Origin: Gammaproteobacteria bacterium
GTDB lineage: Bacteria > Pseudomonadota > Gammaproteobacteria > CBDBNL01 > G965229495
Direction of reading: 5' to 3'
DNA: 64,000 nucleotides
Assembly (NCBI GenBank): GCA_965229495.1
Contig: OZ245880.1
Span: 2,357,211 to 2,421,210 of the forward strand
This document shows positions 18,001 to 48,068 of the stretch, piece after piece. The position numbers were made by a program, and so were the translations under genes. Position 1 is the stretch's first letter; every line of letters begins with the position of its first letter. The notes beneath the pieces are model-generated. The model was not told the origin of the DNA. It made no database searches and was given only the letters and a program-made list of their open reading frames with translations.

Positions 18001-20294
18001 TCGACACCGTATCCGTCATCGACACCAGCGCCAGCGACACCCTGGTCGACGAAGCCGGCACCGCCACCCTCGAAGCCAGCGCCAGCGACGACGACGGCAT
18101 CGACAGCTATATCTGGCAGCAGGTCAATAGCGACGGCAGCGCCCTAACCGGCACCGCGCTCACCATCACCAACGCCACCAGCGCTATAGCCACAGTCTCC
18201 GCTCCGGGCATAGCCGACAACAGCAGCAATAATCAAAGCTTCTATTTCGCCCTAACCGTCACCGATGGACTTGGCGACAGCACCACCAGCCCAGCGCTCA
18301 CCCTCAACGTAAGCAATACCTACAAAACCCCAGCCATAACCTCCGGCGCCAACTCCAATCTCGATGCAATCAACCTCAGTTGGACCGCCGATAGCAGCCA
18401 TAACTACTCGCTCTATCGCTCCAGCGAAATCAATTGCGATATCAACACTTACTCCTCATGCTCCGAACCAGCGCTCTACACCGACAGCAGCGGCATCACC
18501 ATCAGCGGCACTAGCGCCAGCGTAACCGATACCGGCCTCATATCTAACAGCATTTATTATTACTGGCTCGAAGCCCAGCTCAATTCCGAGGTCGTTTCCT
18601 TAAATACCAACCCCATCCAAGTCGCCACCACTCCGCCACCCGCAGTCGACGCTGGCATCCCTAACAGCCAGGCAGTAGGCACCCTTGCCAGCCTCCGCGG
18701 CTCTGCCACCGCCGACACTGGCAGAACCATAGCGTCTTACCTCTGGCAAGAAACCACCGACTTCGGCATCACCATCGACCGCGCCGACGCCGCCAACGCC
18801 AGCTTCCTGGTCCCCGACGACCTCACCACTGGCACCATCCTCAGCTTCCAGCTCACCGCCACCGACTCCGACGGCGCCAGCGCCAGCGCCACCACCAGCA
18901 TCACCATCGCCGACCCTGGCACCGAGAAATGGTATTTTGACAACGCTTCCGGCGGGGTCAGATCCTCGCCAGCTATCGGCGCCGACGGCACCGTCTACTT
19001 CGGCGCCAACGATGGCAACCTCTACGCCCTTAATCCCCAGGACGGCAGCATCCAATGGACCTTCGCCACTGGCGACGAAATCCAAACACCCCCCGCCATC
19101 GGCGCCGACGGCACCGTCTACTTCGGTAGCGAAGATGGCAACCTCTACGCCGTCTCCCCACCCACCGACGACAGCCAATCTGGAGACCAAAAGTGGTCTT
19201 ACCAGGACAATAATGGTGAGTTTGGTGAGCATACCTCGGTTTCTATCGCTGCCGACGGCACCCTCTACTTCGGCAGCCGAGACTTCTCTCTGCACGCCCT
19301 CGACCCCGCCAACGGCAGCATCCTCTGGAGCTATCTCACTGGAGACATCTTAATTAGCAAGGCGGCGATCAGCTCTACGGGCACCATATATTTCGGCAGT
19401 GGCGACAGACTAGTGTACGCCATAAACCCACCCAGCGGCAGCGCTAACGATCCATCGCTTCGCTGGAGCGAAGCTACTGGTTCTTACCTCACCTGGAGCA
19501 GCCCCGCTATCGGCGCCAACGACACCGTATACAATGGTAGCTGGAGCGGTGATCTGCACGCGTTCAACTCCGATACTGGCGCCCCCCAATGGAGCTATGC
19601 GGCTGCCGACGACATCCGAACTTCCCCAGCCATAGCCGCCGACGGCACCATCTACTTTGGCAGTAGAGACTACTCTTTGTACGCGCTCGACTCCAACGGC
19701 GACTATAAATGGAATTACCCAACTGGCTTTTGGGTACAGTCTTCCCCCGTCATCGGCGCCGACGGCACCGTGTACTTCGGCAGCGACGATGACGATGTCA
19801 GCGCGCTCAACCCTAATGGCGATCTTCAATGGGAATTCCCTACTAACGGTAATGTTGATTACTCGTCAGGCGCCCTCGCCCCCGACGGCACCTTATTCAT
19901 TGGTAGTATCACCGGTCTTTACGCCATCCACACCGCCTCCGCCGGTCTCCAAGCCAACTCGCCTTGGCCCAAATTCGGCCAGAATAATCGCCACAGCGGC
20001 CGCGTCAACCTCGAGCCCACCGCCAACGCTGGCGCCGATCAAAGCGTCATCGCTGGCGACACCGTCAACCTCGACGCCACCGCCAGCACCGATTCTGACG
20101 GCATAATCATCGACTACTACTGGCGCGAAACCAGCAGCTACGGCATCAGCATCGCCAACAACAACAGCGCCCAAGCCAGCTTCACCGCCCCCGCCCCCAT
20201 CTCCGATGACGACAACACCATCACCATCGAACTAACCGTAACCGACGACCACAGCGCCACCGCCACCACCACCCACACCATCACCCTCAACTAA
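3..20294 (+). CDS. Giant acidic multidomain surface/adhesin-like protein (6763 aa as read). It contains Ig-like modules, an FG-GAP-like propeller, PKD-like and Fn3 domains, and a PQQ/BamB-like 8-blade propeller. The 5' end may lie upstream of the window.
   Basis: It is a single uninterrupted ORF in the track. At least 16 modules open with a D-x-x-x-P boundary: VDTQGPSIESV near nt 1300, IDSVRPQ near 3650, VDSGPPYIESV near 4990, FDTTPPIVKEV near 7105, VDTTAPRV near 7520, VDTTPPIF near 11760. Each boundary is followed by an hxhxFSExh strand (FVLTFSEAIN, FALTFSEPLN, FELTFSEILL), as in Big_5/SbsA-type Ig domains. No signal peptide is visible and only 2 nt lie upstream of the ATG at 3, so the true start is uncertain. 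Confidence 0.8.
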   Translation: MPIINFLVGNQADDYSDGSIQATFQAYHEQKSDVITFTERVEEGFIFDDYDGIELLPEDLTAAIAWQGYDVIDVLRPTEAVDTTSAALTDISAFVANAVLEDVFIDIRFPSLSLDILQLEANSDTRDDASASNDYYYYLNSYLILGLSFDEAVIIPTSGGEYQSFVEFAYQDIDGATQVRNVRFDPIYATSILADYGIDWDYVSSGFSEDIYFVYQIGTDDSTSAADATGYIRLNDFNITGIVDRSGKEFIVESNIALTPDDAIIDLDKTSIHSYKLLVVDENGNQLDNLYTELATNISGALTEDKYITSGQDLVIELSFGRTFSEEDTEVVFDLGGDTGLYLDIAIDNDQEREFRAVIQEDTADDKSYSDGTSTLRYLLDLSNEPSVLSDLDGIGIAFPEDSMSSYQDQSGEVNLNFSDTFVESLNFINVDTQGPSIESVYMQPSSTGLTLYYGDEDELQITVQFDESVETVVSGGFRNMFLNFNLYDPDRPNTAGLTSRQADYLNNDGNRSYVFTYIVDFGNDEPYEQIYFDSVVLESTSDADVTTIIGDARDDPNMLTSATFTNAISDAVVQWHALEFEGPQIDTLIIPAGDPNTGTISLGGGDELALTLVTNREVAFASSSEPRLGLLAGNTGVTFNYLGEYNSSIFGLSHTFTYTVDSDVETNISGLYIPTDALHVDGEDSVLDSANNNLDTSLNLSSTEHVETGGTAWNTNPTEYIHIDSKVPEFANKFIPAQALSLTPNANIASIITFTSDDIFTLDIQNNSSFNDEFPASFVSGGELAVVDFTRPTYHAEINSVDWYIWSAIQDGYYRISTDDPYSPWLFTKTSDVVTIQDLFDDVNGVGEFTTTSDSWYLVNDLEAGAIEVFSATNYITSQTITATFDQLYLTGETIYTYLVISEPITVADEFSSEGSYGEYPGYSLSYFDDSNSEANLSLEFSHWIETRPDSTSAYSKQVMVFANTLDAATINTRGTSVRPARELPDAARLELRDLFGNDLLVNEDASLTVYSTSESNSISGIQLSGYLVDISGISLYYTDDDGDPAVVSTNRTYIIGNELILDITFSEELTESSYDPEQDLFLTFRFNDASSKEHILGDSSPATGTSDVDQRYWYNSDDAQYSGQTVGGQTGRGNYEDSAINNPSSDFNDVLRYIFTIPDRADGDDYNTAEDGVSDPNLTVTGLSLGANLIDEYGARVDSAAAIEYLNNNPLFISIDSVRPQMYLTPTVDYSQLAEFNTYSRDDYFSTLEGNTEPHPSEITFQLSFSEPIVMPASASGIDDDESDFSAGLTFSLSDSDVNLTASSSYVPFSGSGEAPEYTGAEFTYEVTAIDDGVIESVSINATIYDLSGNENNYTSSIFDEVLYNGIYLDGVAATAVIAGSSDIHMKVVPPGGSLQPVGSSTYGVGSTLYFEITYDQAIYTNNFSDAAADISLNLQVNTAGSLVQAPIIASQLDSYDSEIGNRELTFTYAITDLDVSNDSGYLLHSIDYSVDNARYGILDSYGNGIDETNLTHDFSDLAITTAPIDTVLPSIDAVSFNHTKDSSNTLYGGGENLTFVLTFSEAINTDVSSFMDDDAGLSFKLASVSAEDSHRIALYSGEHETNTTFTFTYEVGSTEGVSDNGDIYLDDMILLGATYDTALNLETNLTYDDPSNPADSGYDVDSGPPYIESVSIQFQRSGSSISNVDDDTNYYLGIGTKVTFTLTFNEDISFDVSGDEPIPYLQLKAVDTVNSTPELIHAELTSASQTALSSGNARYISFSFTVGAAATADNTSTDDNITSADNNISQQSLYNPLEIFALQNADQIRDVASNVLSSASAHALTGDELTDIHSDGVDPEPDALGDTKVHIDSVRPEITAVLLDKANGIYGNNDNLKLTVNFSELLDTVALSTIDNTNTNAVNLVITRIYPDYDDPSDENSTYTFIRQNVGVNTLDSSTQVLYVLEALSGGFANYSYEGTIQPSYEMTGTGLVRDIAYNEIVPQDLNITANADGNYVSSSALSSFAVPVATVDHYPPRAVSVDVRIPSSDSVGTIPETDEIYKFGDTFVFTVNFHENVNITGHEDNLANLELLLDFDDNSTDRGIALSAIPTSSRDQLQFTYVVATGDQAMLTLTDVDGSVTGTPNTEYNQSLGINGFDQLLNSLVLQDDYNNSIIPEDIDFRSYDADDNGTDDYSDLDNDNFPDPGEGSETSQFLQPDYPVLVDGISPYWVSISTSRDDADVEAFGLNENITFTLTASEDLAEQSGMQLKLLLRDEDGNEQNRSINGEFCRYDPSSYDHSTNEGCFTAADASANATEINQSVIIFPYIVGSDSQDRENNGIDHSLILSESAYDSGSSFASRDIAGNEFASHSFADIPQFIAPANDALVFDTTPPIVKEVLIEITGNDNLAKTNEEIEIILSFTDGDLNLSVDSIANRGLNITAVGLSTGDSNGSVVDVNFGLDKSTRSSLTFSGDFTDNIDWSGLLTLHISDYNNSIIDETTPPNRMSSSLVVGSGSDSLIETYIVDTTAPRVANKNEITTLVNSPITSPSEAYGPGRELTFQLTFNELLSSITGVGIDIASLDFYVYDSVASPARLEQRRAFQPTTGTNTRPRLSTTPSGDKSVAYFYYEVVSGGADSSLDDNGTVYLSSRNTAGSDNQYGEIAVDAADLETYGICSPGALNGTEFGCHIGLNANLYDENGNQNFYGSDIDRDEYLIYAFNRYDEDELDPYTITNLVTDPLEIVSYSIRTTTKDEDQRAFGIDDGATNDSNTTIAQTENQGFIGASETETIFFIVEPGFEGFELNDTAPVDINLTFSLLPPNAPANPDDDDYDYYVATYFESNTEEITLTFAMADFGDIDYESNISLHKVSQAADIKYSGAGASIEAFTDIEFSANLDTWSANSDGTISAEFDNDLDGRLDTGLYLDLKKPALIGVSSYALAEDGTAAQLSSNNAENLYFGRGDQVVFQFTFDEPIGEVVGDGSGTIQLPLELSTGQTIVAAQAPPNIPVPATSTTSDLNITYTILDNDAGEVVNEEFNLTAIVTDTHRNSVATGELDISLIGRNIELPLFNGEFPSLEMVNIYRSFTPSFSDEEVSDPVPDLNATPAVDSYTFTGEGDSISKKFFIAATFTYSSSLGETELPHFDTINSVLPDTNYSFDLGINNSPEYNATLAGFFSESANNSNYYGNRATGQNVMVFSFDVENAGENLDSEGNFINLLELFGANDLSSDLKDAYGNPIAQMPDNLPTVVAIDNVPPELIGLQIEPPGTTSYGPLDTNITFALTFSEPLNEFETTNNDNLRLQFTITGDRDSSNVTVDSPTISSSRAGTGIYIPDLDDSSNAQSLVTGQVVYMMFNLFDGGIEEGYINASVASIVVVDGSTIYDTHKINVDTYADGNKQEINKKVTGTSTADDVDFFVPVITINRSEIEPNYWSIEYTEGSSIINDGNQGLAYENNNTSSPHDSDARVGIDKTVSFIIGYEAVIEDDSVYNADDTISSLGETTLNISFKSGDGNNPDGDFNATFSQVNTVDGQSRLTYTYDVVENGLIYEELTFVEILLPYSDSLIRSSEFNEIVISGSTYFEQETDTIIDGTYPELLDFAIDDDGTLHQDGGIYYFGEGDVITFELTFSEILLDDDDNSTVRPDMDLEWYIFDEITDSVRSIDTIISDATSNKFLSVISNYDPDGSFYELEFPINLIENSASLEGLQGRIFLSGSADNRTTVYTDESGDLRDLARNERDRMEYVHTADENLTFAVDFIRPQLQYIVSEGGEPDVQYIQYASIDALEPTAIYYGRDAITFHVVHDSPLDRFGTSDANLTLYALDNTVPTELQFSMENAIGDWSTAENSNLIDNAPQFIWDLTANEYADINYSASQALTFTQIDVSVYGDRVGNKPYFDLTGTDREDYNPNNLLLSLNNYIPSTATEAGQQFPQPTIYVDTTPPIFKVDSTQDIEVTNLALVFAIELDAPLSALEADASFNDPDSNSSLNSAPTYELSITSLNNSTVSGLLSPHAEQPVGSMGETLGTITTDDNQSFIFSFFSDPVSYGYYLDNLADNTDHEIQLKLTDFVGNSFTHTFNVHKKTDKFLALISGWDSDGKVAYDTISNDNVPLANDATEAIFLVSFVADINESTLSKDDFNLSYSGGNEDDLQGLYISDTISENRSGEAEYDYLVTVTGGNLPLAKGGLKLAFSANQDIATASGYVLNLDDVDDENESYTYSKDFEFFIDDIAQLNSGSASESPSVELNFTAPTTGADQNITGYKLYYGLGTAIPTNDNSPYFSDSESSTRFASSGDVYTFTHKCLLIPDGSSETYNFRVVAQYTIAADDHATTYETLLSANSPLSGDKTASVELSTTTPELDLELNIGLHDGPDLPATCSSSSISGSDYGILSNLGRAVALSSNADDSVDDLYIAGDTSSTGGAIRHYVRSGSQFERNSDDTNLDLATQARQVHTLAAPAATVAPFDLFAAGNPAHLSSSVNTGLAYLFSKSSGVTTWPDDDEGKLDITPTTQAASGSALAIAVVDNGATDAIFALIGEPLSGGGSVRIYAFDQFATSGNPWTELGTLSLADLDSIASNDFTPSEDDEFFGSAIALSADSETVAIASSRAVYIFTLNDAGNLTPLHAILASDYLGAGASFTTDVASQARSLAIQETTIANDSRETYLLAIGLPHDSNSTRGITYVGDSGFIDEGSDSTNNYGAVLLLTNTSDTLTGSTNWRRLAYLRSNDSSGSQQSFYGSGVLFTNPSQPTLIVSQPGYAINNIGATTTASAGNGRLHIYYLNTSGVDAYDQNHLILKASNTISGTLGYGYSFDYRDHVLAIGQPTESDGGEVSLLNLFPQFDYPATGANPEVIASSALSSSNTATELTFAVRFPATVDHDTIESTDFAVSFTEPSNAITFVADDFDIAERLDNSSLDYWEVRVNIQNPDQVRAAGKSGDVYLLFASNAEIKSTSGLTFNLSDFNLSAATNGAATPYVLDFSVPTLESITKISPLQNEINVDLVTFELVFSDDLNTSVNLTETIEFDSALEGYFSLIATAGNETATFGVDDLSLLANNNDGVDVIANIGSSTAFQVTFRGIEDVIYADTSFKDVDSFDITLEIDEAIDQIIGNLSNNSLDASSLDNPTGTTGDVNQTTYLADFNPPEIFNIDVSNISLGAIIAQDTNITYAITFTETLTSELTGGDFHLPITLSTDSGYADEQDLVNASNLSSLFEVAASATSYWSTNGSGFAVATDDNTIFTLTLGFAFDDYKGLVTEATALVVRKGRFEDTAGNLFADDYTDDTNFSISYKEFTLENRSLSITPDITSPQFSELNFFDIIDTIHDNVVVESTNPTPSLGFNYTFSTVIDTATVNDDKSSTDYLSDFSITINGTSYTKDGNEELTLTYYDSVNSTIQTQQLTYNLFDNAAIGYNDSSSPTQLSLVFELDSQMLETGFDLPGDFIVSIATNSDIAAQSGESLVGLADSSTATDMTYRINSLMPVLTQFAHVDSTDGSEDSADVTTSDYHTFTYTDATSTYDEYYGFRLRYQFSEAVHSVLAPDLVQEYDSPDYTYYLPLAGTVTLLDYTFDNTLGGSLPYTASGDYYEDFAIDGSLVQSQQSLSNLAASITWDHLAYLSSRTSDFDAGTSAHTFQIMYDDDYLDDEIYKDYDAYTFPALLGGYGTSANNYQPGIKDFGSLFLDAHGNPARVASEWLNRVAAESNTSLTLTYSPPAQATGAEATDVVGANYTGSFDGDVYGDSTTFAFQLGFDSEIASTTDLLDASSWTITSDNSNVNPFTTPEVVYDGSDGTSYFYTLSNAVSGLYATTGTYSLTFDTTAQVTDEFGSPVDLEGANDLLATLCSSGVCSFDNTSVLELTSVSVSPSTATVPSNGDSSDLDSFDVQLTFSQPVTFTGNINSANDLYAAFDLAYTHDSSDLDSALESLRPITTSEDGSSGYYTQYRLSIDDNSDYWARADYGTIIGVDSVVSVFFEDLQELNTHGVYFTPGFATSTGSLAAIPTTIQDSSITSTITYTLDTVSVIDTSASDTLVDEAGTATLEASASDDDGIDSYIWQQVNSDGSALTGTALTITNATSAIATVSAPGIADNSSNNQSFYFALTVTDGLGDSTTSPALTLNVSNTYKTPAITSGANSNLDAINLSWTADSSHNYSLYRSSEINCDINTYSSCSEPALYTDSSGITISGTSASVTDTGLISNSIYYYWLEAQLNSEVVSLNTNPIQVATTPPPAVDAGIPNSQAVGTLASLRGSATADTGRTIASYLWQETTDFGITIDRADAANASFLVPDDLTTGTILSFQLTATDSDGASASATTSITIADPGTEKWYFDNASGGVRSSPAIGADGTVYFGANDGNLYALNPQDGSIQWTFATGDEIQTPPAIGADGTVYFGSEDGNLYAVSPPTDDSQSGDQKWSYQDNNGEFGEHTSVSIAADGTLYFGSRDFSLHALDPANGSILWSYLTGDILISKAAISSTGTIYFGSGDRLVYAINPPSGSANDPSLRWSEATGSYLTWSSPAIGANDTVYNGSWSGDLHAFNSDTGAPQWSYAAADDIRTSPAIAADGTIYFGSRDYSLYALDSNGDYKWNYPTGFWVQSSPVIGADGTVYFGSDDDDVSALNPNGDLQWEFPTNGNVDYSSGALAPDGTLFIGSITGLYAIHTASAGLQANSPWPKFGQNNRHSGRVNLEPTANAGADQSVIAGDTVNLDATASTDSDGIIIDYYWRETSSYGISIANNNSAQASFTAPAPISDDDNTITIELTVTDDHSATATTTHTITLN
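1290..11800 (+). other. Array of divergent Ig-like (Big_5/SbsA-like) modules within ORF1
   Basis: D-[TSN]-x-x-P boundaries recur every 450-1400 nt, together with the FSE/FNE/FDE strand motif. The modules are too diverged to show nucleotide-level repeats. Confidence 0.55.
13130..14470 (+). other. FG-GAP / integrin-alpha-like beta-propeller region (about 7 blades) within ORF1
   Basis: Blade-like motifs recur: GRAVALSSNADDSVDDLYIAGD..GGAIRHYV, GSALAIAVVDNGATDAIFALIGEP..GGGSVRIYAF, FFGSAIALSADSETVAIASSRAVYIFTL, FYGSGVLFTN..LIVSQPGY..GNGRLHIYYL and YGYSFDYRDHVLAIGQPTESDGGEVSLLNLF. Confidence 0.6.
18000..18915 (+). other. PKD-like domain, then a Cys-pair Fn3 domain, then a second PKD-like domain within ORF1
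   Basis: PKD-like 1: SASDDDGIDSYIWQQVNSDG...FYFALTVTDGLGDSTT. Fn3: INLSWTADSSHNYSLYRSSEINCDINTYSSCSEP...SIYYYWLEA. PKD-like 2: SATADTGRTIASYLWQETTDFG...ASFLVPDD...LSFQLTATDSDGASAS. Confidence 0.6.
18921..20006 (+). other. PQQ/BamB-like beta-propeller, 8 blades, within ORF1
   Basis: There are eight repeats of about 40 aa with the form SSPAIGADGTVYFGxxDGNLYALxxxxGxxxW. The region ends with PWPKFGQNNRHSGR, a typical capping motif of this repeat family. Confidence 0.75.
20007..20291 (+). other. C-terminal PKD-like domain of ORF1
   Basis: ANAGADQSVIAGDTVNLDATASTDSDGIIIDYYWRETSSYGISI..AQASFTAP...ITIELTVTDDHSATAT matches the A-x-AG-x-DQ..V-x-LD-x-S-x-S-x-D-x-DG-x-I-x-x-Y-x-W pattern. Confidence 0.7.
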
Positions 20295-21900
20295 CCCGGG
20301 AGCGCGAGCCCTGGGAGCGCGACCGTCTCGGTCGCCGTGTAAAAAGCGCCGCAAGGCCATCATTTAGGCAAATCCGCTCCTACCAGCAGCGCAGCTAACT
20401 TGTAGCACCCCCCTTACCCTCGACATCGCGGAGCACCGCCCAGGCGGAGCGCCGACTTGCAGTCGGCAGGAGACGAGCTTTGCTCGCCTCCCCACCACTC
20501 CCCTCACACAAGCAGCGAATAAAGCCAATAGCACACGGCCCCCTGGGACCACGCCCACCCCACCCACCGCATAAAAAGCGCCGCAGGCCATCCCTCCGCC
20601 AAATAAGCTTCTCCTAGCAGCGCAGCTAACTTGGAGCACACCCTTGCCCTCAACATCGCGGAGCGCCGCCCAGGCGGAGCGCCGACTTGCAGTCGGCAGG
20701 AGACGCCCGCATGGGCGTCTCCCAAAAAGCACGATGCCCCCTAGTAGCACGGTGCCCTGGGAGCGCGACCGTCTCGGTCGCCGCATAAAAAGCGAGCGCG
20801 CCAGCGCTCAACCTTCGGGCAAATAAGCTTCCCCTAGCAGCGCAGCTAACTTGGAGCACCAACTTGCTTGGAGCACCCCCTTGCCCTCGACATCGCGGAG
20901 CGCGCCCAGGCGGAGCGCCGAGTTGTACTCGGCAGGAGGCGAGCTTGCGAGCCTCCCCACCACTCCCCTCACACAAGCAGCGAATAAAGCCAATAGCACG
21001 GTGCCCCCTAGCACCACGACCATCCCACCCACCGCATAAAAAGCGAGCGCGCCAGCGCTCAACCTTCGGGCAAATAAGCTTCTCCTAGCAGCGCAGCTAA
21101 CTTGGAGCACACCCTTGCCCTCAACATCGCGGAGCGCCGCCCAGGCGGAGCGCCGACTTGCAGTCGGCAGGAGACGCCCGCATGGGCGTCTCCCAAAAAA
21201 GCACGATGCCCCTAGGAGCACCCCCTTGCCCTCGACATCGCGGAGCGCCGCCCAGGCGGAGCGCCGAGTTGTACTCGGCAGGAGGCGAGCTTTGCTCGCC
21301 TCCCCACCACTCCCCTCACACAAGCAGCGAATAAAGCCAATAGCACACGGCCCCCTGGGAGCGCGACCATCCCACCCACCGCATAAAAAGCCCCGCAGGC
21401 CATCCCTCCGCCAAATAAGCTTCTCCTAGCAGCGCAGCTAACTTGGATCACCAACTTGCTTGGAGCACCCCCTTGCCCTCGACATCGCGGAGCGCCGCCC
21501 AGGCGGAGCGCCGAGTTGTACTCGGCTGGAGGCGAGCTTTGCTCGCCTCCCCACCACTCCCCTCACACAAGCAGCGAATAAAGCCAATAGCACGGCCCCC
21601 TAGCACCCCACCCACCCCACCCACCGCCTAAAAAGCACAGCGCCCAACCTCCGCCCAACCAAGCACCCCTCAGCAGCGATTTCCTGGGAGCGCGAGCGTC
21701 TCGCTCGCCGCATAAAAAGCGCCGCAAGGCCATCATTTAGGCAAATTCGCTCCTACCAGCAGTATTTACAGCTATTGAGGTAAAGCCAGGTGAAATAAAC
21801 CCAAAGCACAACATACCCAAGCAGGGCAGGGCACCCCCTAGCACCACGCCCACCCCACCCACCGTATAAAAAGTGAACCCGCAGGGTTCGGATCCAGCCA
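20295..21900. repeat. REP/BIME-like modular repeat array (cluster 1) in the convergent gap between ORF1 and prmC
   Basis: There are about 8 units of variable length (roughly 90-345 nt), each delimited by the marker ATAAAAAGCG. Their modules: H1 CTGGGAGCGCGASCGTCTCGSTCGCCG; H2 GCCGASTTGYASTCGGC (6 copies here); H3 GGAGACGCCCGCATGGGCGTCTCC or GGAGGCGAGCTTTGCTCGCCTCC; the box CACACAAGCAGCGAATAAAGCCAATAGCAC; and the tract CCCACCCCACCCACC. All units have the same orientation. Confidence 0.85.
21866..21889 (-). terminator. Putative intrinsic terminator of prmC (minus strand)
   Basis: The minus strand reads GAACCC-TGC-GGGTTC followed by ACTTTTTAT, about 38 nt after the prmC stop codon. Confidence 0.6.
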
Positions 21901-21926
21901 CGACCCCACCAACTCCCATCCAACAC

Positions 21927-22973
21927 CTACCACCTATCCCCCCACCACCCCCAACTCACCCTCTCCAGCCCCGCCCAATCGAGCTCGGTCTGCACGCCAG
22001 CATAGCCACCCCTACCCAGCTCCCCCCGCACCGCCGCCCCCTGCCCGCAGCCATGCTCCAGCGCCAGCAGCCCTCCCGGTACCAGATAATCTCTGCTCTG
22101 ACAAATAATCTCACGCAAATCCCCCATCCCCTCTTCACCCATCCCCCCTTCACCCATCCCCCTAGCCACACCCCCAGCCATCGCTATCCCATCGCCACCC
22201 ACACCCCCCGCCACCCCCACACCCCCAAACAACCCCAAACCCCCAGCAACCCCCGCCACCAACGCCCCCCTTGGCTCATAACCCAGCCGCGCCAAATGCG
22301 GATCGTCAGCAGCCAGATAAGGCGGATTAGCAACAATCGCATCGTACTTTTCATACCTTCCACCCCCACAACTACCCCCAAAACCATCCCCACAACCATC
22401 TCGATCCCCACAACCATCCTCAAAACCACCACCAAAACCCACACCACCAAAACCACCATCCCTAAAACCAAACCCCCTCAACCAATCACCCTCCACCCAC
22501 CGCACCTCCAGCCCCAGCTGCCGCCCATTCGCGCGCGCCACCGCCAGCGCCGCCGGGCTAATATCAGTCGCCGTCAACTGCCAGCGCGGCCTTTCCGAAG
22601 CCAAAGCCAACGCAATCGCTCCCGACCCGCAGCCCAAATCGATAACCTTTATACCATCCTCATCCGGCAGCAAACGCAAACACAGCTCCACCAACAGCTC
22701 GCTCTCCGGCCGCGGAATCAGCACATTCTCATCCACCCGCAACTCCAGCGACCAAAACTCCTTCCGCCCCAGAATATAAGCCACCGGCTCCCCACCCAAC
22801 CGCCGCCGCCAATAACCTTGAAAAGCCTGCCATTGCTCGCTCGTCGGCGCATACTCGCAATGCGCCAGCAACCAGGCACGGCTCCGCTGCAAAACCTCGC
22901 ACCAGAGCAGCTCCCAATCCAGCAGCAAATCTCGCGGACATTGCTCCCGACTAGCTTGCAGCGTCAGCATCAT
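21927..22973 (-). CDS. prmC: Peptide chain release factor N5-glutamine methyltransferase (PrmC/HemK), carrying two atypical Gly-rich insertions
   Basis: The SAM-binding motif VIDLGCGSGAIALALA is present. The NPPY catalytic motif (IVANPPYL) lies at nt 22317-22328. PrmC-like flanking sequence includes GEPVAYILGRKEFWSLEL, ENVLIPRPESE and YEPRGAL. At 348 aa the protein is long for this family because of the insertions at 22356-22478 and 22122-22253. Confidence 0.85.
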   Translation of the reverse strand: MMLTLQASREQCPRDLLLDWELLWCEVLQRSRAWLLAHCEYAPTSEQWQAFQGYWRRRLGGEPVAYILGRKEFWSLELRVDENVLIPRPESELLVELCLRLLPDEDGIKVIDLGCGSGAIALALASERPRWQLTATDISPAALAVARANGRQLGLEVRWVEGDWLRGFGFRDGGFGGVGFGGGFEDGCGDRDGCGDGFGGSCGGGRYEKYDAIVANPPYLAADDPHLARLGYEPRGALVAGVAGGLGLFGGVGVAGGVGGDGIAMAGGVARGMGEGGMGEEGMGDLREIICQSRDYLVPGGLLALEHGCGQGAAVRGELGRGGYAGVQTELDWAGLERVSWGWWGDRW

Positions 22974-23290
22974 CTAATTTCCCAAACTTCTTGACGGTCC
23001 AAAACACAAGCCACCAGCTCCCCAGCCAACGACCCCCCTCATCCAACATCTCCCCAGCCAACCGCCGCCGCCAATACCCCTGAAAAGCCTGCCATTGCTC
23101 GCTCGTCGGCGCATACTCGCAATGCGCCAGCAACCAGGCACGGCTCCGCTGCAAAACCTCGCACCAGAGCAGCTCCCAATCCAGCAGCAAATCTCGCGGG
23201 CATTGCTCCCGACTAGCTTGCAGCGTCAGCATCATCTAATTTCCCAAACTTCTTCCGGCCCAAAACACAAGCCACCGGTTCCCCATCCAA
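22770..23290. repeat. Direct tandem repeat with a 262-nt period covering the prmC 5' end
   Basis: CCCAAACTTCTT ends at 22992 and again at 23254. CTAGCTTGCAGCGTCAGCATCATCTAATTTCCC occurs at 22951 and 23213. A partial third copy (CCAAAACACAAGCCACCGGTTCCCCA) follows at about 23255-23290. Confidence 0.85.
22951..23235 (-). pseudogene. Duplicated 5' fragment of prmC: start codon plus about 58 identical codons, then divergent sequence
   Basis: The 94-aa ORF begins MMLTLQASREQCPRDLLLDWELLWCEVLQRSRAWLLAHCEYAPTSEQWQAFQGYWRRRL, identical to the PrmC N-terminus. It then diverges and ends overlapping the real prmC start. Confidence 0.7.
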
Positions 23291-23462
23291 AGGCTCTCCA
23301 TCCAAAGGTTCTCCATCCAACGACCCCACCCACCATCTCTCCACAACCACCACAACCACTGAACCCCCAGCCAACCACAACCACCCACCACAACCACCAC
23401 ACCACCACCAAACCACTAAACCCCCAGCCATCCAAACCATCCAAACCATCCAAAAACCATTC
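23262..23462. repeat. G-depleted C/A-rich low-complexity tract with short tandem repeats
   Basis: TCCATCCAAAGGYTC occurs about 2.5 times and CCATCCAAA 3 times, alongside CCACAACCACCAC-type runs. There is almost no G on the + strand. Confidence 0.8.
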
Positions 23463-23504
23463 ATAGCATTCACCAGCTTTTAGAGCTGCAACGCCCCTAG
23501 TCTA

Positions 23505-23513
23505 TGTTAGAAT
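23505..23513 (+). promoter_or_regulatory. Candidate extended -10 promoter (TGtTAGAAT) for the aapJ-like gene
   Basis: TGTTAGAAT matches the extended -10 pattern TGnTATAAT and lies 64 nt upstream of the ATG. A CTACCC-GCGA-GGGTAG hairpin at 23522-23537 lies in the presumed leader. A GGAG Shine-Dalgarno sequence is at 23567-23570. Confidence 0.35.
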
Positions 23514-23576
23514 TTAATAAGCTACCCGCGAGGGTAGTAATTTAATCCACAATTAACAATTTCACTGGAGAAAACC

Positions 23577-24593
23577 ATGAAAAAAATAATAGCTTTATGC
23601 TCGTCCGCGAGCGTATTGTTCTTCGCCTCGCTGCTTTCCGCGGCCACTCTTGACGACGTCAAATCCCGCGACCAGCTAATTTGCCTCGTCAATGTCGGCG
23701 TACCCGCTTGGGCGTTCACCGATTCCAGCGGCAAATGGCAAGGCTTCGACGTCGACTTCTGCCGCGCCACCGCCGCTGCCGTACTGGGCGACCCTGACAA
23801 AGTCAAATTCGTCACCACCACTGGTAAGACCCGCTTCACCCAGCTAGCCTCCGCTGAGGGCGACGTACTTTATCGCAACACCACTTGGACCATGACTCGC
23901 GACGTCGACCTCGGTCTCAACTTCGCTGGCGTCAACTACTATGACGGCCAAGGCTTCATGGTACCCAAGAGCTTAGGCGTCTCCTCCGCGCACGAACTCG
24001 ACGGCGCCTCGGTCTGCATCCAAACCGGCACCACCACCGAGCTCAACCTGGCTGACTTCTTCCGCAATAACAGCATGAGCTACGAGCCCATCACCGTAGA
24101 GAGCGAAGACGAATCCACAGCCAACTACAACGCTGGCCGCTGCGACGTCTACACCACTGACGCCTCCGCGCTCGCCGCCGTGCGCTCCAAGCTCCCCGAT
24201 CCCAAAGCGCACATCATCCTGCCCGAAATCGTCTCCAAAGAGCCCCTCGGCCCAGCCGTGCGCCAAGGCGACGACCAATGGATGGACATCGTGCGTTGGG
24301 TACTCAATGGCCTATTGCTAGCCGAAGAATATGGCGTAACTCAAGCTAACGTCGCCGCCCTTGCCCGTGGTGATAACAATCCCGACATCAACCGCCTGCT
24401 CGGCATCGAAGGCAACTTCGGCGAGCAGCTTGGTCTCGATAGCCAATGGATGGTACGCGCCATTTCCGCCCGTGGTAACTACGGCGAAATCTTCGATAGA
24501 AATATCGGCCCCAATACCCCAGTCGGCCTCGAGCGTGGCTTGAACGCGCTGTACACCGACGGTGGCATCCAATACGCACCGCCCATTCGCTAA
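23577..24593 (+). CDS. aapJ: General L-amino-acid ABC transporter periplasmic substrate-binding protein (AapJ/BztA family)
   Basis: It has a signal peptide (MKKIIALCSSASVLFFASLLSA). Family-typical blocks are present: GFDVDFCRA, NTTWT..RD, GVNYYDGQGFMV, CIQTGTTTELNLADFF, GRCDVYTTD, ILPEIVSKEPLGPAVRQGDDQW, and the C-terminal GGIQYAPPIR, recalled from Rhizobium AapJ. A GGAG RBS lies 6 nt upstream. Confidence 0.85.
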   Translation: MKKIIALCSSASVLFFASLLSAATLDDVKSRDQLICLVNVGVPAWAFTDSSGKWQGFDVDFCRATAAAVLGDPDKVKFVTTTGKTRFTQLASAEGDVLYRNTTWTMTRDVDLGLNFAGVNYYDGQGFMVPKSLGVSSAHELDGASVCIQTGTTTELNLADFFRNNSMSYEPITVESEDESTANYNAGRCDVYTTDASALAAVRSKLPDPKAHIILPEIVSKEPLGPAVRQGDDQWMDIVRWVLNGLLLAEEYGVTQANVAALARGDNNPDINRLLGIEGNFGEQLGLDSQWMVRAISARGNYGEIFDRNIGPNTPVGLERGLNALYTDGGIQYAPPIR

Positions 24594-24666
24594 GCCCGAA
24601 TTGGCACATCCTGCGACCTTAGGAGCTCGGCATCAGCTAAGCACCTAATCTCAGGACAAACGCAAA

Positions 24667-24698
24667 GGCGGGCGCCCTCCAAGACGCCCGCCTTTTTT
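24667..24698 (+). terminator. Rho-independent terminator after aapJ
   Basis: The stem is GGCGGGCG (24667-24674) paired with CGCCCGCC (24685-24692), followed by TTTTTT (24693-24698). Confidence 0.8.
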
Positions 24699-24744
24699 AT
24701 TGCCCATCCCAACCCAGCCTCGCACAACCACAAAAGCCCACGCC

Positions 24745-26034
24745 ATGACCACCGCCGACACCTCAGCCGACACCACCGCCGAACTCGACGAGCAAATCAG
24801 CGCCCTAAGCACACGCGCGAGATTGGCGGCGCAGCAAACATCCGCGCTCACCGGCTACGATAAATCCGTAATCCTCGCCAACATCGCCTCCTCGCTGGAG
24901 CGCAACAAAAGCGCCATCATCGCCGCCAATGCCCAGGACGTCGAAGCCGCCCAAGCCCAGGGCATGTCCAGCGCCCTGATCGACCGCCTACAAGTCAACG
25001 ACAGCACCATCAAAGGCATCGTCAACTCCATCAACGCCGTACGCGCGCTCCCCGACCCCATCGGCGTCATCAGCGATCTGAAATATATGCCGAGCTCGAT
25101 CCAGGTCGGCAAAATGCGCGTACCCATCGGCGTCGTCGGCGTCATCTACGAATCGCGCCCCAACGTCACCGTCGACAGCGCCGTCCTCAACATCAAAGCC
25201 GGCAACGCTGCCATCCTCCGCGGCGGCCGCGACGCCGCGCACAGCAACGCTCTCCTGCTCGAACTACTCCGCACCGAGCTGCAGAATTACGGCGTCGACC
25301 CCAATTGCCTGCAAGCGCCACCGTCCATGGAGCACGACTTCATCTGGCGCATGTTAGCGCAGCCCGCCAACCTCGACCTCGTCATCCCGCGCGGCGGCCG
25401 CGCCCTAATCGAATCCGTACTCGAGCATTCGCGCGTCCCCGTACTCAAGCACCTCGACGGCAATTGCCACATCTACGTCGACGCCCACGCCGACCCCTAC
25501 AAAGCCAGCGCCATAGTCATCAACGCCAAAACCCGCCGCTACGGCGTCTGCAATGCCATGGAAAGCCTGCTGATACACGCCGACGTCGTCGAGCAACTCT
25601 TTGAATTAATAATCGAACCCTTGCAACTTCAAGGCGTCGAACTCCGCGGTTGCCCGCGCACCTGCCGCTACCACGACAGCATCGTCGCCGCCAGCGAAGA
25701 CGACTACTACAGCGAATACCTCGCGCCCATCCTCTCCATAAAAATCGTCAATAGCGCCGACGAAGCCATTGAGCACATCAACCACTACGGCTCGCACCAC
25801 ACCGACGCCATCGTCACCGAAAGCTACAGCAACGGCCGCAACTTCCTGCGCTTCGTCGACTCCAGCTCCGTGCTTTGGAACGCCTCCACCGCCTTCGCCG
25901 ACGGCGCCGAATTCGGGCTCGGCGCCGAGATCGGCATATCTACCGACAAACTCCACGCCCGCGGCCCCGTAGGCCTGGACGGCTTGACCTCGGAGAAATA
26001 CGTCGTCCTCGGCAACGGCGAAATTCGCTCCTAG
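24745..26034 (+). CDS. proA: Gamma-glutamyl phosphate reductase (glutamate-5-semialdehyde dehydrogenase)
   Basis: ProA-typical blocks are present: RVPIGVVGVIYESRPNVTVD, GNAAILRGG, LVIPRGG, CNAMESLL, HTDAIVT, ASTAFADGAEFGLGAEIGISTDKLHARGP. The ATG at 24745 is preferred over the track's TTG at 24700, which overlaps the aapJ terminator. Confidence 0.9.
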   Translation: MTTADTSADTTAELDEQISALSTRARLAAQQTSALTGYDKSVILANIASSLERNKSAIIAANAQDVEAAQAQGMSSALIDRLQVNDSTIKGIVNSINAVRALPDPIGVISDLKYMPSSIQVGKMRVPIGVVGVIYESRPNVTVDSAVLNIKAGNAAILRGGRDAAHSNALLLELLRTELQNYGVDPNCLQAPPSMEHDFIWRMLAQPANLDLVIPRGGRALIESVLEHSRVPVLKHLDGNCHIYVDAHADPYKASAIVINAKTRRYGVCNAMESLLIHADVVEQLFELIIEPLQLQGVELRGCPRTCRYHDSIVAASEDDYYSEYLAPILSIKIVNSADEAIEHINHYGSHHTDAIVTESYSNGRNFLRFVDSSSVLWNASTAFADGAEFGLGAEIGISTDKLHARGPVGLDGLTSEKYVVLGNGEIRS

Positions 26035-26052
26035 CATTCTAAACTCGGATAT

Positions 26053-26685
26053 TTGCAAGATTCCCTGGTAATCTTCGGCGGCAGCTTCGACCCCCCGCAC
26101 ACAGGCCACCTGCGGCTAGCGCTAGAGCTGCACGCCCGCCAGCCGCGCTGCCGCATCGCCTTCGTGCCCTGCGCGCAGAATGCCTGCAAAGCCAGCGCCC
26201 CCAGCAGCGCCGAACACCGCCTCCACCTTCTGCGTCTGCTCCTGCAGCCGTACCCGCAATTCAGCCTGCTCGACCACGAACTCCGCTTGGGCGGCATCAG
26301 CTCCACCGTGCGCAGCCTCCAAGCCTTGCGCCGCCAGCACGGCGCCGAACTCCCCATCCTGCTGCTCATGGGCGTCGACAGCTACAACTCCTTACCCCAA
26401 TGGCGCCGCGTCCAAGAACTACCCCAGCTCTGCAGCCTGCTCGTCGCCAACCGCCCGGGGCATCAGCGCGCCTCATTGCCCGCCGCAATCGCTAGCTGGC
26501 AAACCGCCGAACTCGCCACCGCCCTCAGCGCTAGCAGCGGTTATATTTGTTGGCTACAATTACCCGAAGTCGACATCTCGTCGAGCGCGCTACGCCACCT
26601 ACTCGCCCAAGGCCTCGACACCAGCGCCTGGCTCGCGCCAGCACTACAAGCATACATTAAGGAGCAAGGTCTTTATGGCCAATGA
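26053..26685 (+). CDS. nadD: Nicotinate-nucleotide adenylyltransferase
   Basis: The N-terminal motif IFGGSFDPPHTGHL is present, together with ISSS..R and the C-terminal YIKEQGLY, which resembles E. coli NadD. The start is a TTG 6 codons before IFGG and is less certain. Confidence 0.85.
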   Translation: MQDSLVIFGGSFDPPHTGHLRLALELHARQPRCRIAFVPCAQNACKASAPSSAEHRLHLLRLLLQPYPQFSLLDHELRLGGISSTVRSLQALRRQHGAELPILLLMGVDSYNSLPQWRRVQELPQLCSLLVANRPGHQRASLPAAIASWQTAELATALSASSGYICWLQLPEVDISSSALRHLLAQGLDTSAWLAPALQAYIKEQGLYGQ

Positions 26686-27103
26686 AGCCGAAGCACTCTT
26701 GAGCAGCATCACCCAGGTCTTAACCGACCTCAAAGCCCAAAACATCAGCACCTACCGCGTCGAGCGCATCACCAGTTGGTTCGACGCCATGATCATCGTC
26801 GGCGCCAGCTCCAAAAGGCAAGCCCAAGCCCTGGCAGAAAACACCATAGCCCGCCTGCGCGACCAAGGCGTGCGCGTTTACAGCGTCGAAGGCCTGGATA
26901 GCGGCGAATGGATACTGCTCGACTTCGCCAGCGTCATCGTCCACATCATGCAGCCCGAAGCCCGCGAACTCTACCGCCTCGAGCAACTCTGGCTGCCGCA
27001 ATTCGGCAGCAGCCCCAGCGAATTCGCCGAAGCCGAAGCCACCGACCCCGCGCTCGCCTCGGCAAATAATCAGAGCCAGGGCAGAGCAGGGCGGATAAGC
27101 TAA
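26675..27103 (+). CDS. rsfS: Ribosomal silencing factor RsfS (iojap family)
   Basis: It starts at the ATG at 26675, inside the track's ORF 26180..27103, preceded by AAGGAG at 26659-26664. The sequence ..FDAMIIVGASSKRQAQALAENT...VEGLDSGEWILLDFASVIVHIMQPEARELYRLEQLW is typical of RsfS. It overlaps the nadD 3' end by 11 nt. Confidence 0.85.
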   Translation: MANEAEALLSSITQVLTDLKAQNISTYRVERITSWFDAMIIVGASSKRQAQALAENTIARLRDQGVRVYSVEGLDSGEWILLDFASVIVHIMQPEARELYRLEQLWLPQFGSSPSEFAEAEATDPALASANNQSQGRAGRIS

Positions 27104-27570: not shown

Positions 27571-28590
27571 CCCCACCCCCTTGCCCTCAGCACGGGCGGA
27601 GCGCCGCCCAGGTGGAGCGCCGAGTTGTACTCGGCAGGAGACGCCCGCATGGGCGTCTCCCCAAAAGCACGGTGCCCTGGGAGCGCCGAGTTGTACTCGG
27701 CAGGAGGCGAGCTTGCGAGCCTCCCCACCACTCCCCGCACACAAGCAGCGAATAAAGCCAATAGCACGGTGCCCTGGGAGCGCGCCCATCTCGCTCGCCG
27801 CATAAAAAGCGCCGCAGGCCATCCATCCGCCAAATAAGCTTCTCTTAGCAGCGGAGCTAACTTGGAGCACCGACTTGCCCTCGACATCGTGGAGCGCCGC
27901 CCAGGCGGAGCGCCGAGTTGTACTCGGCAGGAGGCGAGCTTGCGAGCCTCCCCACCACTCCCCTCACACAAGCAGCGAATAAAGCCAATAGCACGGTGCC
28001 CTGGGAGCGCGCCCATCTCGCTCGCCGTATAAAAAATGAACCCGAAGGGTTCGACATTTCGGCAAATTCGCTCCTACCAGCAGCATCTACAGGTACTGAG
28101 GTAAAGCTAGGTTAAATAAACTCAAAGCACAACATACCCAAGCAGGGCAGGGCACCCCTAGCACCACGCCCACCCCACCCACCATATAAAAACCCAGCCC
28201 ACCAGCGCTCAATCCTCAAGCAAATCAGCCGACTACCAGCAGCGATTTCCTGGGAGCGCGAGCGTCTCGCCCGCTGTATAAAAGCCAGCCACCAGCGCCC
28301 AACCTCCCGCCAACCAAGCCACCTCAGCAGCGAAGCTCGCCCACGGCGGAGCGCCGAGTTGTACTCGGCAGGAGGCGAGCTTGCGAGCCTCCCCACCACT
28401 CCCCTCACACAAGCAGCGAATAAAGCCAATAGCACGGCGCCCCCTGGGAGCGCGCCCGTCTCGCTCGCCGTATAAAAAATGAACCCGAAGGGTTCGACAT
28501 CTGGGCAAATAAGCTGCTCTTAGCAGTTAATCTTGGGATTGGTGGTATCGCCAAGCCGCCCTCGCCAAGACGCAAGCCCGCTCGCCTCCC
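27571..28590. repeat. REP/BIME-like modular repeat array (cluster 2) between rlmH and the giant lipoprotein gene
   Basis: It uses the same module set as cluster 1. H2 copies lie at 27619, 27685, 27912 and 28353. The CACACAAGCAGCGAATAAAGCCAATAGCAC box occurs 3 times. GAACCC-GAA-GGGTTC hairpins lie at 28038-28052 and 28481-28495. A module of about 130 nt (28060-28190) is shared with 21730-21860. Confidence 0.85.
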
Positions 28591-28720
28591 CATCACTTAA
28601 CAAACCACAGATACCCACATACAAGCTCAGCGCGTCAATAAACCACCTTCTGCCAAACCACCTCTCCACTCTCCACTATCAACTATCAACTATCCATTAT
28701 CAATTAACAACCCCACCGCC

Positions 28721-29035: not shown

Positions 29036-29112
29036 CATCGTGGAGCGCCGACTTGTAGTCGGCATCGTGGAGCGCCGACTTGCAGTCGGCAGGAGGCGAG
29101 TTCACGAGCCTC
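29036..29112. repeat. REP doublet (H2 twice plus an H3-like hairpin) in the leader of giant lipoprotein gene 1
   Basis: CATCGTGGAGCGCCGACTTGTAGTCGGC is directly followed by CATCGTGGAGCGCCGACTTGCAGTCGGC AGGAGGCGAGTTCACGAGCCTCC. The doublet is absent from the equivalent position upstream of the paralog. Confidence 0.8.
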
Positions 29113-29206
29113 CCCACCACTCCCGTCCACCCAAGCACCTCAACTTAAACCACACAACCTCATCCCCCAAAACACCAACAACTACCAGCGCCGTCCCCCA
29201 CAATCC

Positions 29207-47282: not shown

Positions 47283-47490
47283 AGCACGCTATCCTGGGAG
47301 CGGCCTGGGAGCGCGAGCGTCTCGCTCGCCGCATAAAAAGTGAGCGCGCCAGCGCTCGACCTTCAGGCAAATAAGCTGCTCTTAGCAGCGGATCCTAGGG
47401 TTGGCTGGTATCGCCGACTTGCACTCGGCATGGGGGCGGCTTGGAGCGCCGACTTGTAGTCGGCAGGAGGCGAGCTTGCGAGCCTCCCCA
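47283..47490. repeat. REP/BIME-like repeat cluster 4, at the junction between the two giant lipoprotein paralogs
   Basis: It contains an H1 hairpin GCGAGCG-TCT-CGCTCGC at 47313-47329, then ATAAAAAG and a GAGCGC-GCCA-GCGCTC hairpin at 47342-47357. H2 copies lie at 47413-47429 (hybrid arms) and 47448-47464, followed by GGAGGCGAGCTTGCGAGCCTCC. Confidence 0.85.
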
Positions 47491-47660
47491 CCACCCAACC
47501 CACCACCTCTTCCTCGCCCTGCCAGGAGCCAAGCCCACCCGCCTCCCCACCACTTCATAAAACCACAGACACACAGATACACACAAATTAACTTATCAAC
47601 ACCACAGACCCTCTGCCAAATCACCTCTCCAACCACCAATTATCCACCCTACACACCCCC

Positions 47661-47924: not shown

Positions 47925-48068
47925 GACACACCTCCACAGTACAACCAACGTGGTGCCGTGTGCGTTTCGCCCGCCGTATAAGCCGTATAAAAAGTAAACC
48001 CAACAGATTCAACATCATTCCCTAAAACACCAACAACCCATCGCTGTTATCCAACACCCCACAATCCC

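Follow-up and report, generated by a model that had tools for sequence, protein, structure and literature searches.

Repeated hairpins fill the sequence between several genes of an uncultured gammaproteobacterium, and they raise the question of what kind of element they form and why all of them point the same way. The locus is a 64,000-nucleotide stretch, called the window here (GenBank assembly GCA_965229495.1, contig OZ245880.1, positions 2,357,211 to 2,421,210 of the forward strand). It contains three giant genes, and the hairpins lie around them in four clusters, arrays 1 to 4. An initial annotation had compared these clusters with repetitive extragenic palindromic (REP) sequences. The arrays are probably REP clusters with a higher-order arrangement like that of bacterial interspersed mosaic elements (BIMEs), seeded by a REP-associated tyrosine transposase (RAYT) and then amplified head-to-tail as composite units. 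With this reading, some 3 kb of puzzling sequence between genes, next to the giant genes, can be placed among the REP/RAYT repeats.

One-way hairpin arrays at the giant genes

The four arrays are built from the same modules, as the initial annotation had held. Within the window, BLAST matches of the arrays are confined to the other arrays, with none on the opposite strand and none in genes. The two main hairpins are H1 and H2, and they are accompanied by three others (H0, H1b, and H3). The arrays also lie at the borders of the giant genes, as first described. Array 1 starts 1 nucleotide past the stop codon of giant gene 1, array 3 is about 95 nucleotides upstream of the ATG of giant gene 2, array 4 is about 20 nucleotides past the stop codon of that gene, and a degenerate H1 module precedes giant gene 3.

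20295..21900, + strand: array 1, about seven composite units (230-250 nucleotides) from the stop of giant gene 1 (20294) to the stop of prmC (21927, - strand)
27571..28590, + strand: array 2, begins at the rlmH stop codon; about four units and a 190-nucleotide non-REP block common to array 1
29036..29125, + strand: array 3, head-to-tail H2 doublet (27-nucleotide period, 5-nucleotide linker ATCGT), H3, and a CCCCACCAC tail
47283..47494, + strand: array 4, H1, H1b, hybrid H2, H2, and H3, just past the stop of giant gene 2 (47272)
47950..48010, + strand: degenerate H1/H1b module upstream of giant gene 3 (ATG 48069)

H1 and H2 share a common build. H1 is GGAGC followed by GCGNNCG-TCT-CGNNCGC, and H2 is GGAGC followed by GCCGANT-TGY-ANTCGGC. 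Each has the GGAGC tag, a perfect 7-bp stem starting with GC, and a 3-nucleotide pyrimidine-rich loop (TCT or TGY), for a length of 22 nucleotides. All intact H1 and H2 hairpins of the window have GGAGC on their 5' side, as REPs have a guide motif, and the tags seen across genomes are GGAGC, GGATC, GGAAC, and GGACC. An unbiased scan for GGANC plus a perfect hairpin found 17 copies on the + strand, compared to 0.76 in shuffled sequences, so that H1 and H2 have the short stem-loop form of REPs. The two matches on the - strand are different, unrelated 6-bp hairpins.

The pattern GCCGASTTGYASTCGGC, scanned across both strands of the window, gave exactly 14 H2 matches, all intergenic and all on the + strand (chance expectation 0.01). 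They agree with the initial annotation in position and in stem type: six are GCCGACT/AGTCGGC (C:G type), seven are GCCGAGT/ACTCGGC (G:C type), and one is a hybrid with a C.C mismatch (47413). The H1 pattern GGAGCGCGASCGTCTCGSTCGC, with up to three mismatches, gave eight matches, again all intergenic and on the + strand (chance expectation 0). Four have perfect stems and fall into the two versions already listed, GCGACCG/CGGTCGC (20319, 20765) and GCGAGCG/CGCTCGC (21692, 47313). Four copies with broken stems (27777, 28004, 28253, 28447) and about six eroded, C-rich slots without a hairpin were absent from the earlier list. There are thus 22 recognisable copies of H1 and H2 in the window, all intergenic, and the elements are multi-copy and extragenic like REPs.

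20451..20467, + strand: H2, C:G type, loop TGC; GGAGC tag at 20446
20681..20697, + strand: H2, C:G type, loop TGC
20917..20933, + strand: H2, G:C type, loop TGT
21152..21168, + strand: H2, C:G type, loop TGC
21263..21279, + strand: H2, G:C type, loop TGT
21510..21526, + strand: H2, G:C type, loop TGT
27619..27635, + strand: H2, G:C type, loop TGT; joined to the H3b version, a recombinant unit
27685..27701, + strand: H2, G:C type, loop TGT
27912..27928, + strand: H2, G:C type, loop TGT
28353..28369, + strand: H2, G:C type, loop TGT
29047..29063, + strand: H2, C:G type, loop TGT
29074..29090, + strand: H2, C:G type, loop TGC
47413..47429, + strand: H2 hybrid, GCCGACT/ACTCGGC with C.C mismatch, without GGAGC tag
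47448..47464, + strand: H2, C:G type, loop TGT
20314..20335, + strand: H1, GGAGC + GCGACCG-TCT-CGGTCGC, perfect stem
20760..20781, + strand: H1, GCGACCG/CGGTCGC, perfect stem
21687..21708, + strand: H1, GCGAGCG/CGCTCGC, perfect stem
47308..47329, + strand: H1, GCGAGCG/CGCTCGC, perfect stem
27777..27798, + strand: H1 with broken stem, GCGCCCA/CGCTCGC
28004..28025, + strand: H1 with broken stem, GCGCCCA/CGCTCGC
28253..28274, + strand: H1 with one mismatch, GCGAGCG/CGCCCGC
28447..28468, + strand: H1 with two mismatches, GCGCCCG/CGCTCGC
20541..20570, + strand: eroded H1 slot, C-rich, no hairpin
21006..21035, + strand: eroded H1 slot
21354..21382, + strand: half-eroded H1 slot, 5' arm intact, 3' arm C-rich
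21598..21627, + strand: eroded H1 slot
21836..21865, + strand: eroded H1 slot
28155..28185, + strand: eroded H1 slot

H1 and H2 in other genomes

Both classes recur elsewhere with the same tag and geometry, in agreement with the REP-like reading. An exact-pattern scan with GGAGCGCCGANTTGNANTCGGC, in which each species was represented by one genome, found H2 in at least 107 genome stretches, with 133 copies among the matches listed. At least seven bacterial phyla are represented. The carriers include Verrucomicrobiia, Planctomycetota, Binatia, Chthonomonas, Acidobacteriota, Lentisphaerae, and several Gammaproteobacteria, the last being Thiorhodospira sibirica, Thiohalocapsa, Thiocystis, and metagenome-assembled genomes (MAGs). 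Chromatiales are among the carriers. Among the matches listed, H2 is found on dozens of contigs in single MAGs. Most of the other genomes have it as inverted pairs about 26 nucleotides apart, an arrangement like that of REPINs (REP doublets forming hairpins). H1 was searched in metagenomes with the pattern GGAGCGCGNNCGTCTCGNNCGC and was found on at least 120 contigs of unassigned taxonomy, often in inverted pairs.

Transposase genes adjoin both hairpins in other genomes. When open reading frames (ORFs) were clustered across the H2 loci, one family stood out, with members in three genomes (loci L049, L020, and L083). It scores 93.9 bits (cut-off 80) against NF047646, the NCBIfam model for REP-associated tyrosine transposases, it also matches Pfam Y1_Tnp, and its only relative in PDB is E. 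coli TnpAREP (4ER8). H2-type REPs are found on both flanks of the gene in these three loci, and in a fourth locus (L139) a RAYT adjoins an H1 REPIN. The RAYT that the initial annotation had named as a partner to look for is therefore found beside H1 or H2, in other genomes. The three H2-adjacent RAYTs are 40-54% identical to each other, while H1 and H2 are near-unchanged across phyla, which is odd in relation to the view that REPIN-RAYT systems are lineage-specific. The RAYT frame of L020, a gammaproteobacterial MAG (1240-2059), itself holds an inverted REP pair (1792, 1825). The pair is apparently in-frame and forms an insertion of about 26 codons relative to the RAYT of L049.

Covariation of the stems

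The stems of H1 and H2 vary by compensated changes across genomes, as expected of REPs in which structure is kept rather than sequence. For H2, copies were collected by matching no more than the tag and the opening four bases of the stem, and those used for fishing were excluded. This set has 80 copies with 7/7 pairs. Position 6 is T:A in 38 copies, G:C in 35, and C:G in 13, with about six unpaired, and position 5 can be A:T, G:C, or C:G. Among the H1 copies from metagenomes, the two free positions both form Watson-Crick pairs in 112 of 137, and at least ten combinations occur. Close relatives of the window add GCGGGCG/CGCCCGC for H1 and a change from G:C to A:T in H2. When window and relatives are taken together, H2 is 97% paired, and the structure of H0, H2, and H3 is above all 500 shuffles. 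H1 is just 60% paired in this set because many copies have decayed.

The initial annotation had taken the arm swaps within the window as a sign that the stem is selected. There the H2 swap mostly tracks the version of H3: C:G copies go with GGAGAC-type H3 and G:C copies with GGAGGC-type H3. The clearest exception is the copy at 27619. In arrays 3 and 4, three C:G copies likewise stand beside GGAGGC-type H3, at 29047 (a copy that lacks its own H3), 29074, and 47448. The 6:7 split therefore represents two amplified unit subfamilies, with one or two events rather than 13. Compensation and covariation hold at the family level, in the wider samples, but the split within the window counts for only those one or two events, and about half of the H1 copies there have decayed. 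The tag and H2 are nevertheless highly constant. Across 12 window copies, 19 of their 22 positions do not vary, compared to 67-83% identity for linkers of the same units. Either selection or REP-specific homogenisation would account for this constancy.

Since H1 and H2 flank RAYT genes in other genomes and their stems vary by compensated changes, they are true REPs. Judged from their sequences, they are two widespread REP classes of one shared design, both with the GGAGC tag. The literature search covered six forms of the H2 core sequence only, and none of them occurs in the papers searched.

Growth of the arrays by composite units

The repeating unit of the arrays is 230-250 nucleotides long. 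H1 and H2 are 130-152 nucleotides apart, and the next H1 slot follows H2 after about 95-100 nucleotides. The parts of the unit are, in order, CCTGGGAGC-H1, CGYATAAAAAG-H1b, a CAAATAAGCT..TAGCAGC linker, a GGAGCAC..CTCGACATCGC linker, H0, GGAGC-H2, A-H3, and CCCCACCACTCCCCTCACACAAGCAGCGAATAAAGCCAATAGCAC.

Eroded H1 copies have common derived states and lie in register within the units. Because copies without a hairpin were amplified in register along with the rest, array growth probably came from whole units being duplicated and not from transposition of one REP at a time. Different arrays also have blocks of 190-530 nucleotides in common. The 190-nucleotide non-REP block of array 2 (28000-28192) is 87% identical to part of array 1 (21683-21872), and array 4 and its promoter region are homologous to the tail of array 2 and its promoter region, beside paralogous giant genes. 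These similarities suggest that the arrays spread by block duplication or gene conversion. Duplication of whole units and blocks would account for the single orientation without a further cause. Comparison of eroded with intact H1 shows G>A in 32 cells, T>C in 17, G>C in 12, and A>C in 8, with reverse changes in 2, and this is the direction of the strand bias of the region.

The arrays probably formed in several steps. REPs of both classes would be seeded at the 3' ends of genes by a RAYT, a Y1 HUH transposase acting on single-stranded hairpins. Such an enzyme would depend on the loop, the 5' tag, and a stem that is intact, although complementary stem swaps would be tolerated. Unequal recombination or slippage would then extend the composite unit head-to-tail, and spread between loci could occur by block duplication or gene conversion, along with duplication of a giant-gene cassette. 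Copies would decay under the regional strand-specific G>A and T>C bias, with the block of tag and H2 remaining invariant. Seeding followed by amplification of units would give every copy one direction, and eroded H1 copies and plain linkers would be amplified too.

Other hairpins of the unit

H3 has two perfect 10-bp versions that differ at four compensated pairs (GGAGGCGAGC/GCTCGCCTCC vs GGAGACGCCC/GGGCGTCTCC), and in its commonest version the outer 6 bp alone are paired. H1b has three stem versions with compensated changes (GAGCGC, GAACCC, and GCC), and it reads on the - strand as a hairpin followed by a run of T.

20469..20491, + strand: H3, GGAGACGAGC-TTT-GCTCGCCTCC, one A.C mismatch
20699..20722, + strand: H3b, GGAGACGCCC-GCAT-GGGCGTCTCC, 10 bp
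20935..20956, + strand: H3c, GGAGGC..GCCTCC, outer 6 bp pair only
21170..21193, + strand: H3b, 10 bp
21281..21303, + strand: H3d, GGAGGCGAGC-TTT-GCTCGCCTCC, 10 bp
21528..21550, + strand: H3d, 10 bp
27637..27660, + strand: H3b, 10 bp
27703..27724, + strand: H3c
27930..27951, + strand: H3c
28371..28392, + strand: H3c
29092..29113, + strand: H3 variant, GGAGGCGAGTTCACGAGCCTCC
47466..47487, + strand: H3c
20794..20809, - strand: H1b, GAGCGC/GCGCTC, then GCTTTTTATGC on the - strand (terminator-like)
21045..21060, - strand: H1b, GAGCGC/GCGCTC and T-run on the - strand
21875..21889, - strand: H1b, GAACCC/GGGTTC and T-run, 38 nucleotides past the prmC stop
28038..28052, - strand: H1b, GAACCC/GGGTTC and ATTTTTTATA on the - strand
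28481..28495, - strand: H1b, GAACCC/GGGTTC and ATTTTTTATA on the - strand
47342..47357, - strand: H1b, GAGCGC/GCGCTC and T-run on the - strand
20348..20357, - strand: short H1b, GCC-GCAA-GGC
20580..20588, - strand: short H1b, GCC-GCA-GGC
21721..21730, - strand: short H1b
27811..27819, - strand: short H1b
20436..20447, + strand: H0, CCGC-CCAG-GCGG just upstream of H2; more at 20666, 21137, 21248, 21495, 27604, and 27897

H1b agrees with the pattern of an intrinsic (Rho-independent) terminator on the - strand at 20810, 21061, 21889, 28052, and 28495, against a background that is inflated because this strand is rich in G and T. The copy at 21875..21889 is probably the terminator of prmC. There is no T-run of four or more on the + strand in any array.

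Several other kinds of element were considered. Rfam has no match in the whole window at gathering thresholds or in 20200-29300 at E <= 1, and a scan of the window found no tRNA or tmRNA. A large structured RNA was rejected, since whole units fold no better than shuffles (z = -1.5 for DNA, + strand; z = +0.6 for RNA, - strand), and therefore only the local hairpins count. Small RNA genes on the - strand were set aside, as promoter-like sites are absent inside the arrays. A CRISPR array was rejected because the apparent spacers are repeated modules and no cas gene is present among the ORFs scanned with Pfam, of which the giant genes were scanned partly. Integron attC sites were ruled out in that the segments between repeats are themselves repeats.

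Alternative explanations

Several observations weigh against the arrays being REP clusters. There is no inverted pair of H1 or H2 in the 64 kb, and the close pairs are all head-to-tail, which is not the arrangement of BIMEs or REPINs; the inverted pair, or REPIN, is thought to be the mobile unit in Pseudomonas. No RAYT was found by tblastn in the window or in seven related loci (L108-L114). About half of the H1 copies in the window have lost their stem, so that many copies may be relics. The H2+H3 junction pattern, which is lineage-specific, has no match in the JGI metagenomes. The identification as REPs applies to H1 and H2 and does not extend to H3 and H1b. Finally, the tag is GGAG or GGAN and agrees with that of the GTAG superfamily (Di Nocera 2013) at positions 1, 3, and 4 only.

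Some of these observations would suit a relic satellite, in which dead REPs are passengers in a locally amplified 230-250-nucleotide repeat without function or any current part for a transposase. Linkers and modules without hairpins were amplified together with the REPs, all copies lie within 28 kb in a single orientation, no RAYT is near the arrays here or in the seven related loci, about half of H1 has decayed, and the folding of whole units is ordinary. A relic is unlikely, however, because the tag and H2 have remained constant at 19 of 22 positions while the linkers of the same units have diverged by 17-33% under a strong bias that erodes G and T. In addition, related genomes have dispersed single copies in both orientations.

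A host regulatory module is less likely still. The hairpins would protect the 3' ends of giant-gene mRNAs, and H1b with its T-run would stop antisense or convergent transcription. This would fit the start of arrays 1-25 nucleotides past stop codons, the single H2+H3 past the stop of a homologous large adhesin-type gene in a relative (L113), the compensated variants of the H1b stem, and the terminator-like form of H1b on the - strand, including the copy just past prmC. However, the lack of a T-run on the + strand leaves the giant genes without an intrinsic terminator in the arrays, the arrays also lack promoter-like sites and Rfam matches, and the terminator-like matches on the - strand are inflated by its G/T-rich composition (23 vs 13.3 expected). 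A regulatory role is also compatible with the REP explanation, and a host function as an mRNA 3' end barrier or as terminators against antisense read-in is possible. An assembly artefact, from repeat expansion or mis-joining in a metagenome assembly, is hardly credible: the source is apparently uncultured and its closest relatives are found only in one long-read ENA assembly, but the copies are diverged (70-95% identical) and mosaic rather than identical, the same modules occur on independent contigs, and a cultured species, T. sibirica, has a similar array.

A broader hypothesis joins the REP explanation with strand bias and host function. Strand-specific RAYT action tied to replication would keep the active REP strand on the C/A-rich strand, the giant lipoprotein adhesin genes would have recruited the arrays as barriers at 3' ends and as insulators against antisense transcription, the constancy of the tag and H2 would indicate ongoing selection, and the REP classes found across phyla, beside RAYTs of only about 40% identity, would be a very old, fixed protein-DNA recognition code. 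As a whole this is doubtful. REP strand was compared with local GC skew at 98 loci, and the weak trend (60 vs 36) is to the G-rich strand, opposite to the window. The comparison is uninformative because most copies elsewhere are inverted pairs.

REP clusters amplified as composite units make the window a natural experiment, as one REP is invariant where linkers and some of the hairpins are being eroded by the strand bias, and this could be used to gauge selection or homogenisation. The arrays may also be a recombination substrate behind the duplication of the giant adhesin-type genes.

Giant genes, local context, and relatives

The giant genes are on the + strand at 3-20294, at 29207-47272, and from 48069 to the end of the window. 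Their domains include PKD, cadherin, beta-propeller, and Lcl_C, and genes 2 and 3 have lipoprotein signal peptides. These two are paralogs, with 86% identity across 4.8 kb. Their upstream regions (28557-29020 and 47515-47948) are AT-rich (about 60% A+T) and 78% conserved, and they contain the only promoter-like sites on the + strand near giant genes 2 and 3. A conserved block, SBP-proA-nadD-rsfS-rlmH, is found at 23577-27570. On the - strand, 21927-22973 is occupied by prmC, and array 1 therefore lies between convergent genes. PrmC has long Gly-rich low-complexity insertions, which on the + strand are C-rich short tandem repeats (22123-22470), and the 5' end of its gene is copied by a 262-nucleotide tandem duplication (22781-22992 / 23043-23254, 97%).

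Strand asymmetry is extreme across nearly the whole window. The + strand has a GC skew of -0.1 to -0.45 and an AT skew of up to +0.36, far above usual bacterial skews and also above those of the flanking genes in the closest relative. C makes up 63-68% of third codon positions in genes of the + strand, but in prmC these positions are 57% G, 31% T, and 7% C. As prmC is on the - strand and has the opposite composition, the bias is strand-specific and is not a codon preference.

The closest relative is L108, a long-read metagenome contig from ENA (sample ERZ25074195). Its ProA is 97% identical to that of the window, compared to 53-56% for named Oceanospirillales. The RlmH of the window has no exact match among recorded proteins. 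L108 has a different synteny and only one degenerate H2+H3. It is 96.9% identical to window positions 23468-26023, over SBP-proA, and then NusG-like and succinyl-CoA ligase genes replace nadD-rsfS-rlmH; this break at the 3' end of proA is a recent rearrangement. In relatives from the same ENA sample, H2+H3 and H1 modules occur singly. One is inverted, and the single H2+H3 of L113 is just past a stop codon. No arrays were found in the relatives at 75% identity. [quoted passage not shown] Near-identical contigs from one sample differ in whether they have it at a given site. Its copies occur in both orientations, and none is in the window. A group II intron domain V/VI (Rfam RF00029, 57.6 bits) is on the - strand of L108 at 13696-13767, at the edge of a 1.5-kb stretch without a called gene.

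Comparison with known REP systems

In hairpin design a very close system is the Group 3 REPtron of Stenotrophomonas maltophilia. Its 23-nucleotide REP has the tag GTAG, an 8-bp perfect palindrome, and a 3-nucleotide loop. The enzyme binds just one of the strands; tag, loop, and intact stem are all required, while complement swaps are tolerated (PMC8266576). Given these requirements, stems should covary and the tag and loop should be fixed. The two systems share a tetranucleotide tag, a perfect stem of 7-8 bp, a 3-nucleotide loop, and a length of 22-23 nucleotides. They differ in the tag: GTAG in S. maltophilia, GGAG(C) in the window.

The arrays resemble the BIMEs and REPINs of E. coli in being short extragenic hairpins with a 5' guide motif and linkers, located after stop codons and between convergent genes. 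E. coli TnpAREP (4ER8) is also related to the RAYTs that adjoin H2 elsewhere. Unlike E. coli BIMEs, the window has no inverted pairs, and its stems are perfect, without a bulge.

Head-to-tail dimers are rare in most genomes (Di Nocera et al.), and among close pairs of the REP class seen here their frequency depends on the group. They account for 11 of 20 pairs in T. sibirica, 7 of 18 in other Gammaproteobacteria, and 3 of 56 in other phyla, where 51 of 56 are inverted. T. sibirica ATCC 700588 (NZ_MU255057.1, L035 6430-7320) has a 900-nucleotide array in an intergenic gap after co-oriented genes. Like the window, it mixes G:C, C:G, and hybrid H2 copies and is mostly head-to-tail, and it has doublets with a 5-nucleotide linker, ATCAT, similar to 29042-29090 of the window (ATCGT). 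Unlike the window, its unit is about 115 nucleotides without H1 or H3, and it has a few inverted copies. The array ends in four tandem inverted copies (AAGCCGAGTACAACTCGGCGATCC).

In arrangement, one of the closest systems is that of Pseudomonas fluorescens SBW25. Its GI-GIII REPs form one-way tandem arrays of up to 12 REPs with spacings of 112 and 72 bp, and their orientation is mirrored across the origin (PMC3116915). REP clusters can also be tandemly reiterated together with flanking DNA (PMC3733652). The initial annotation had noted a resemblance to Pseudomonas REPs, and this holds for architecture but for nothing beyond it, since the REP sequences are different and the tag is GGAGC instead of a GTGGGAGC-type head. 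The unit of the window is also longer, with three extra hairpins, many eroded copies, and spacings of about 130 and about 100 nucleotides. The arrays are nevertheless like those of GI-GIII (Bertels & Rainey 2011) in that two REP classes alternate in a head-to-tail unit with one orientation, and near-identical arrays are found at separate loci. Two classes, regular spacing, one orientation, and a tandem unit are all present in the window. The initial annotation was correct that the units here all point one way, unlike those of BIMEs, but the arrangement was already known from SBW25, and head-to-tail pairs of this REP class are common in other Gammaproteobacteria. Overall, tandem one-way arrays of two REP classes are an established arrangement, and the arrays of the window are a further case of it.

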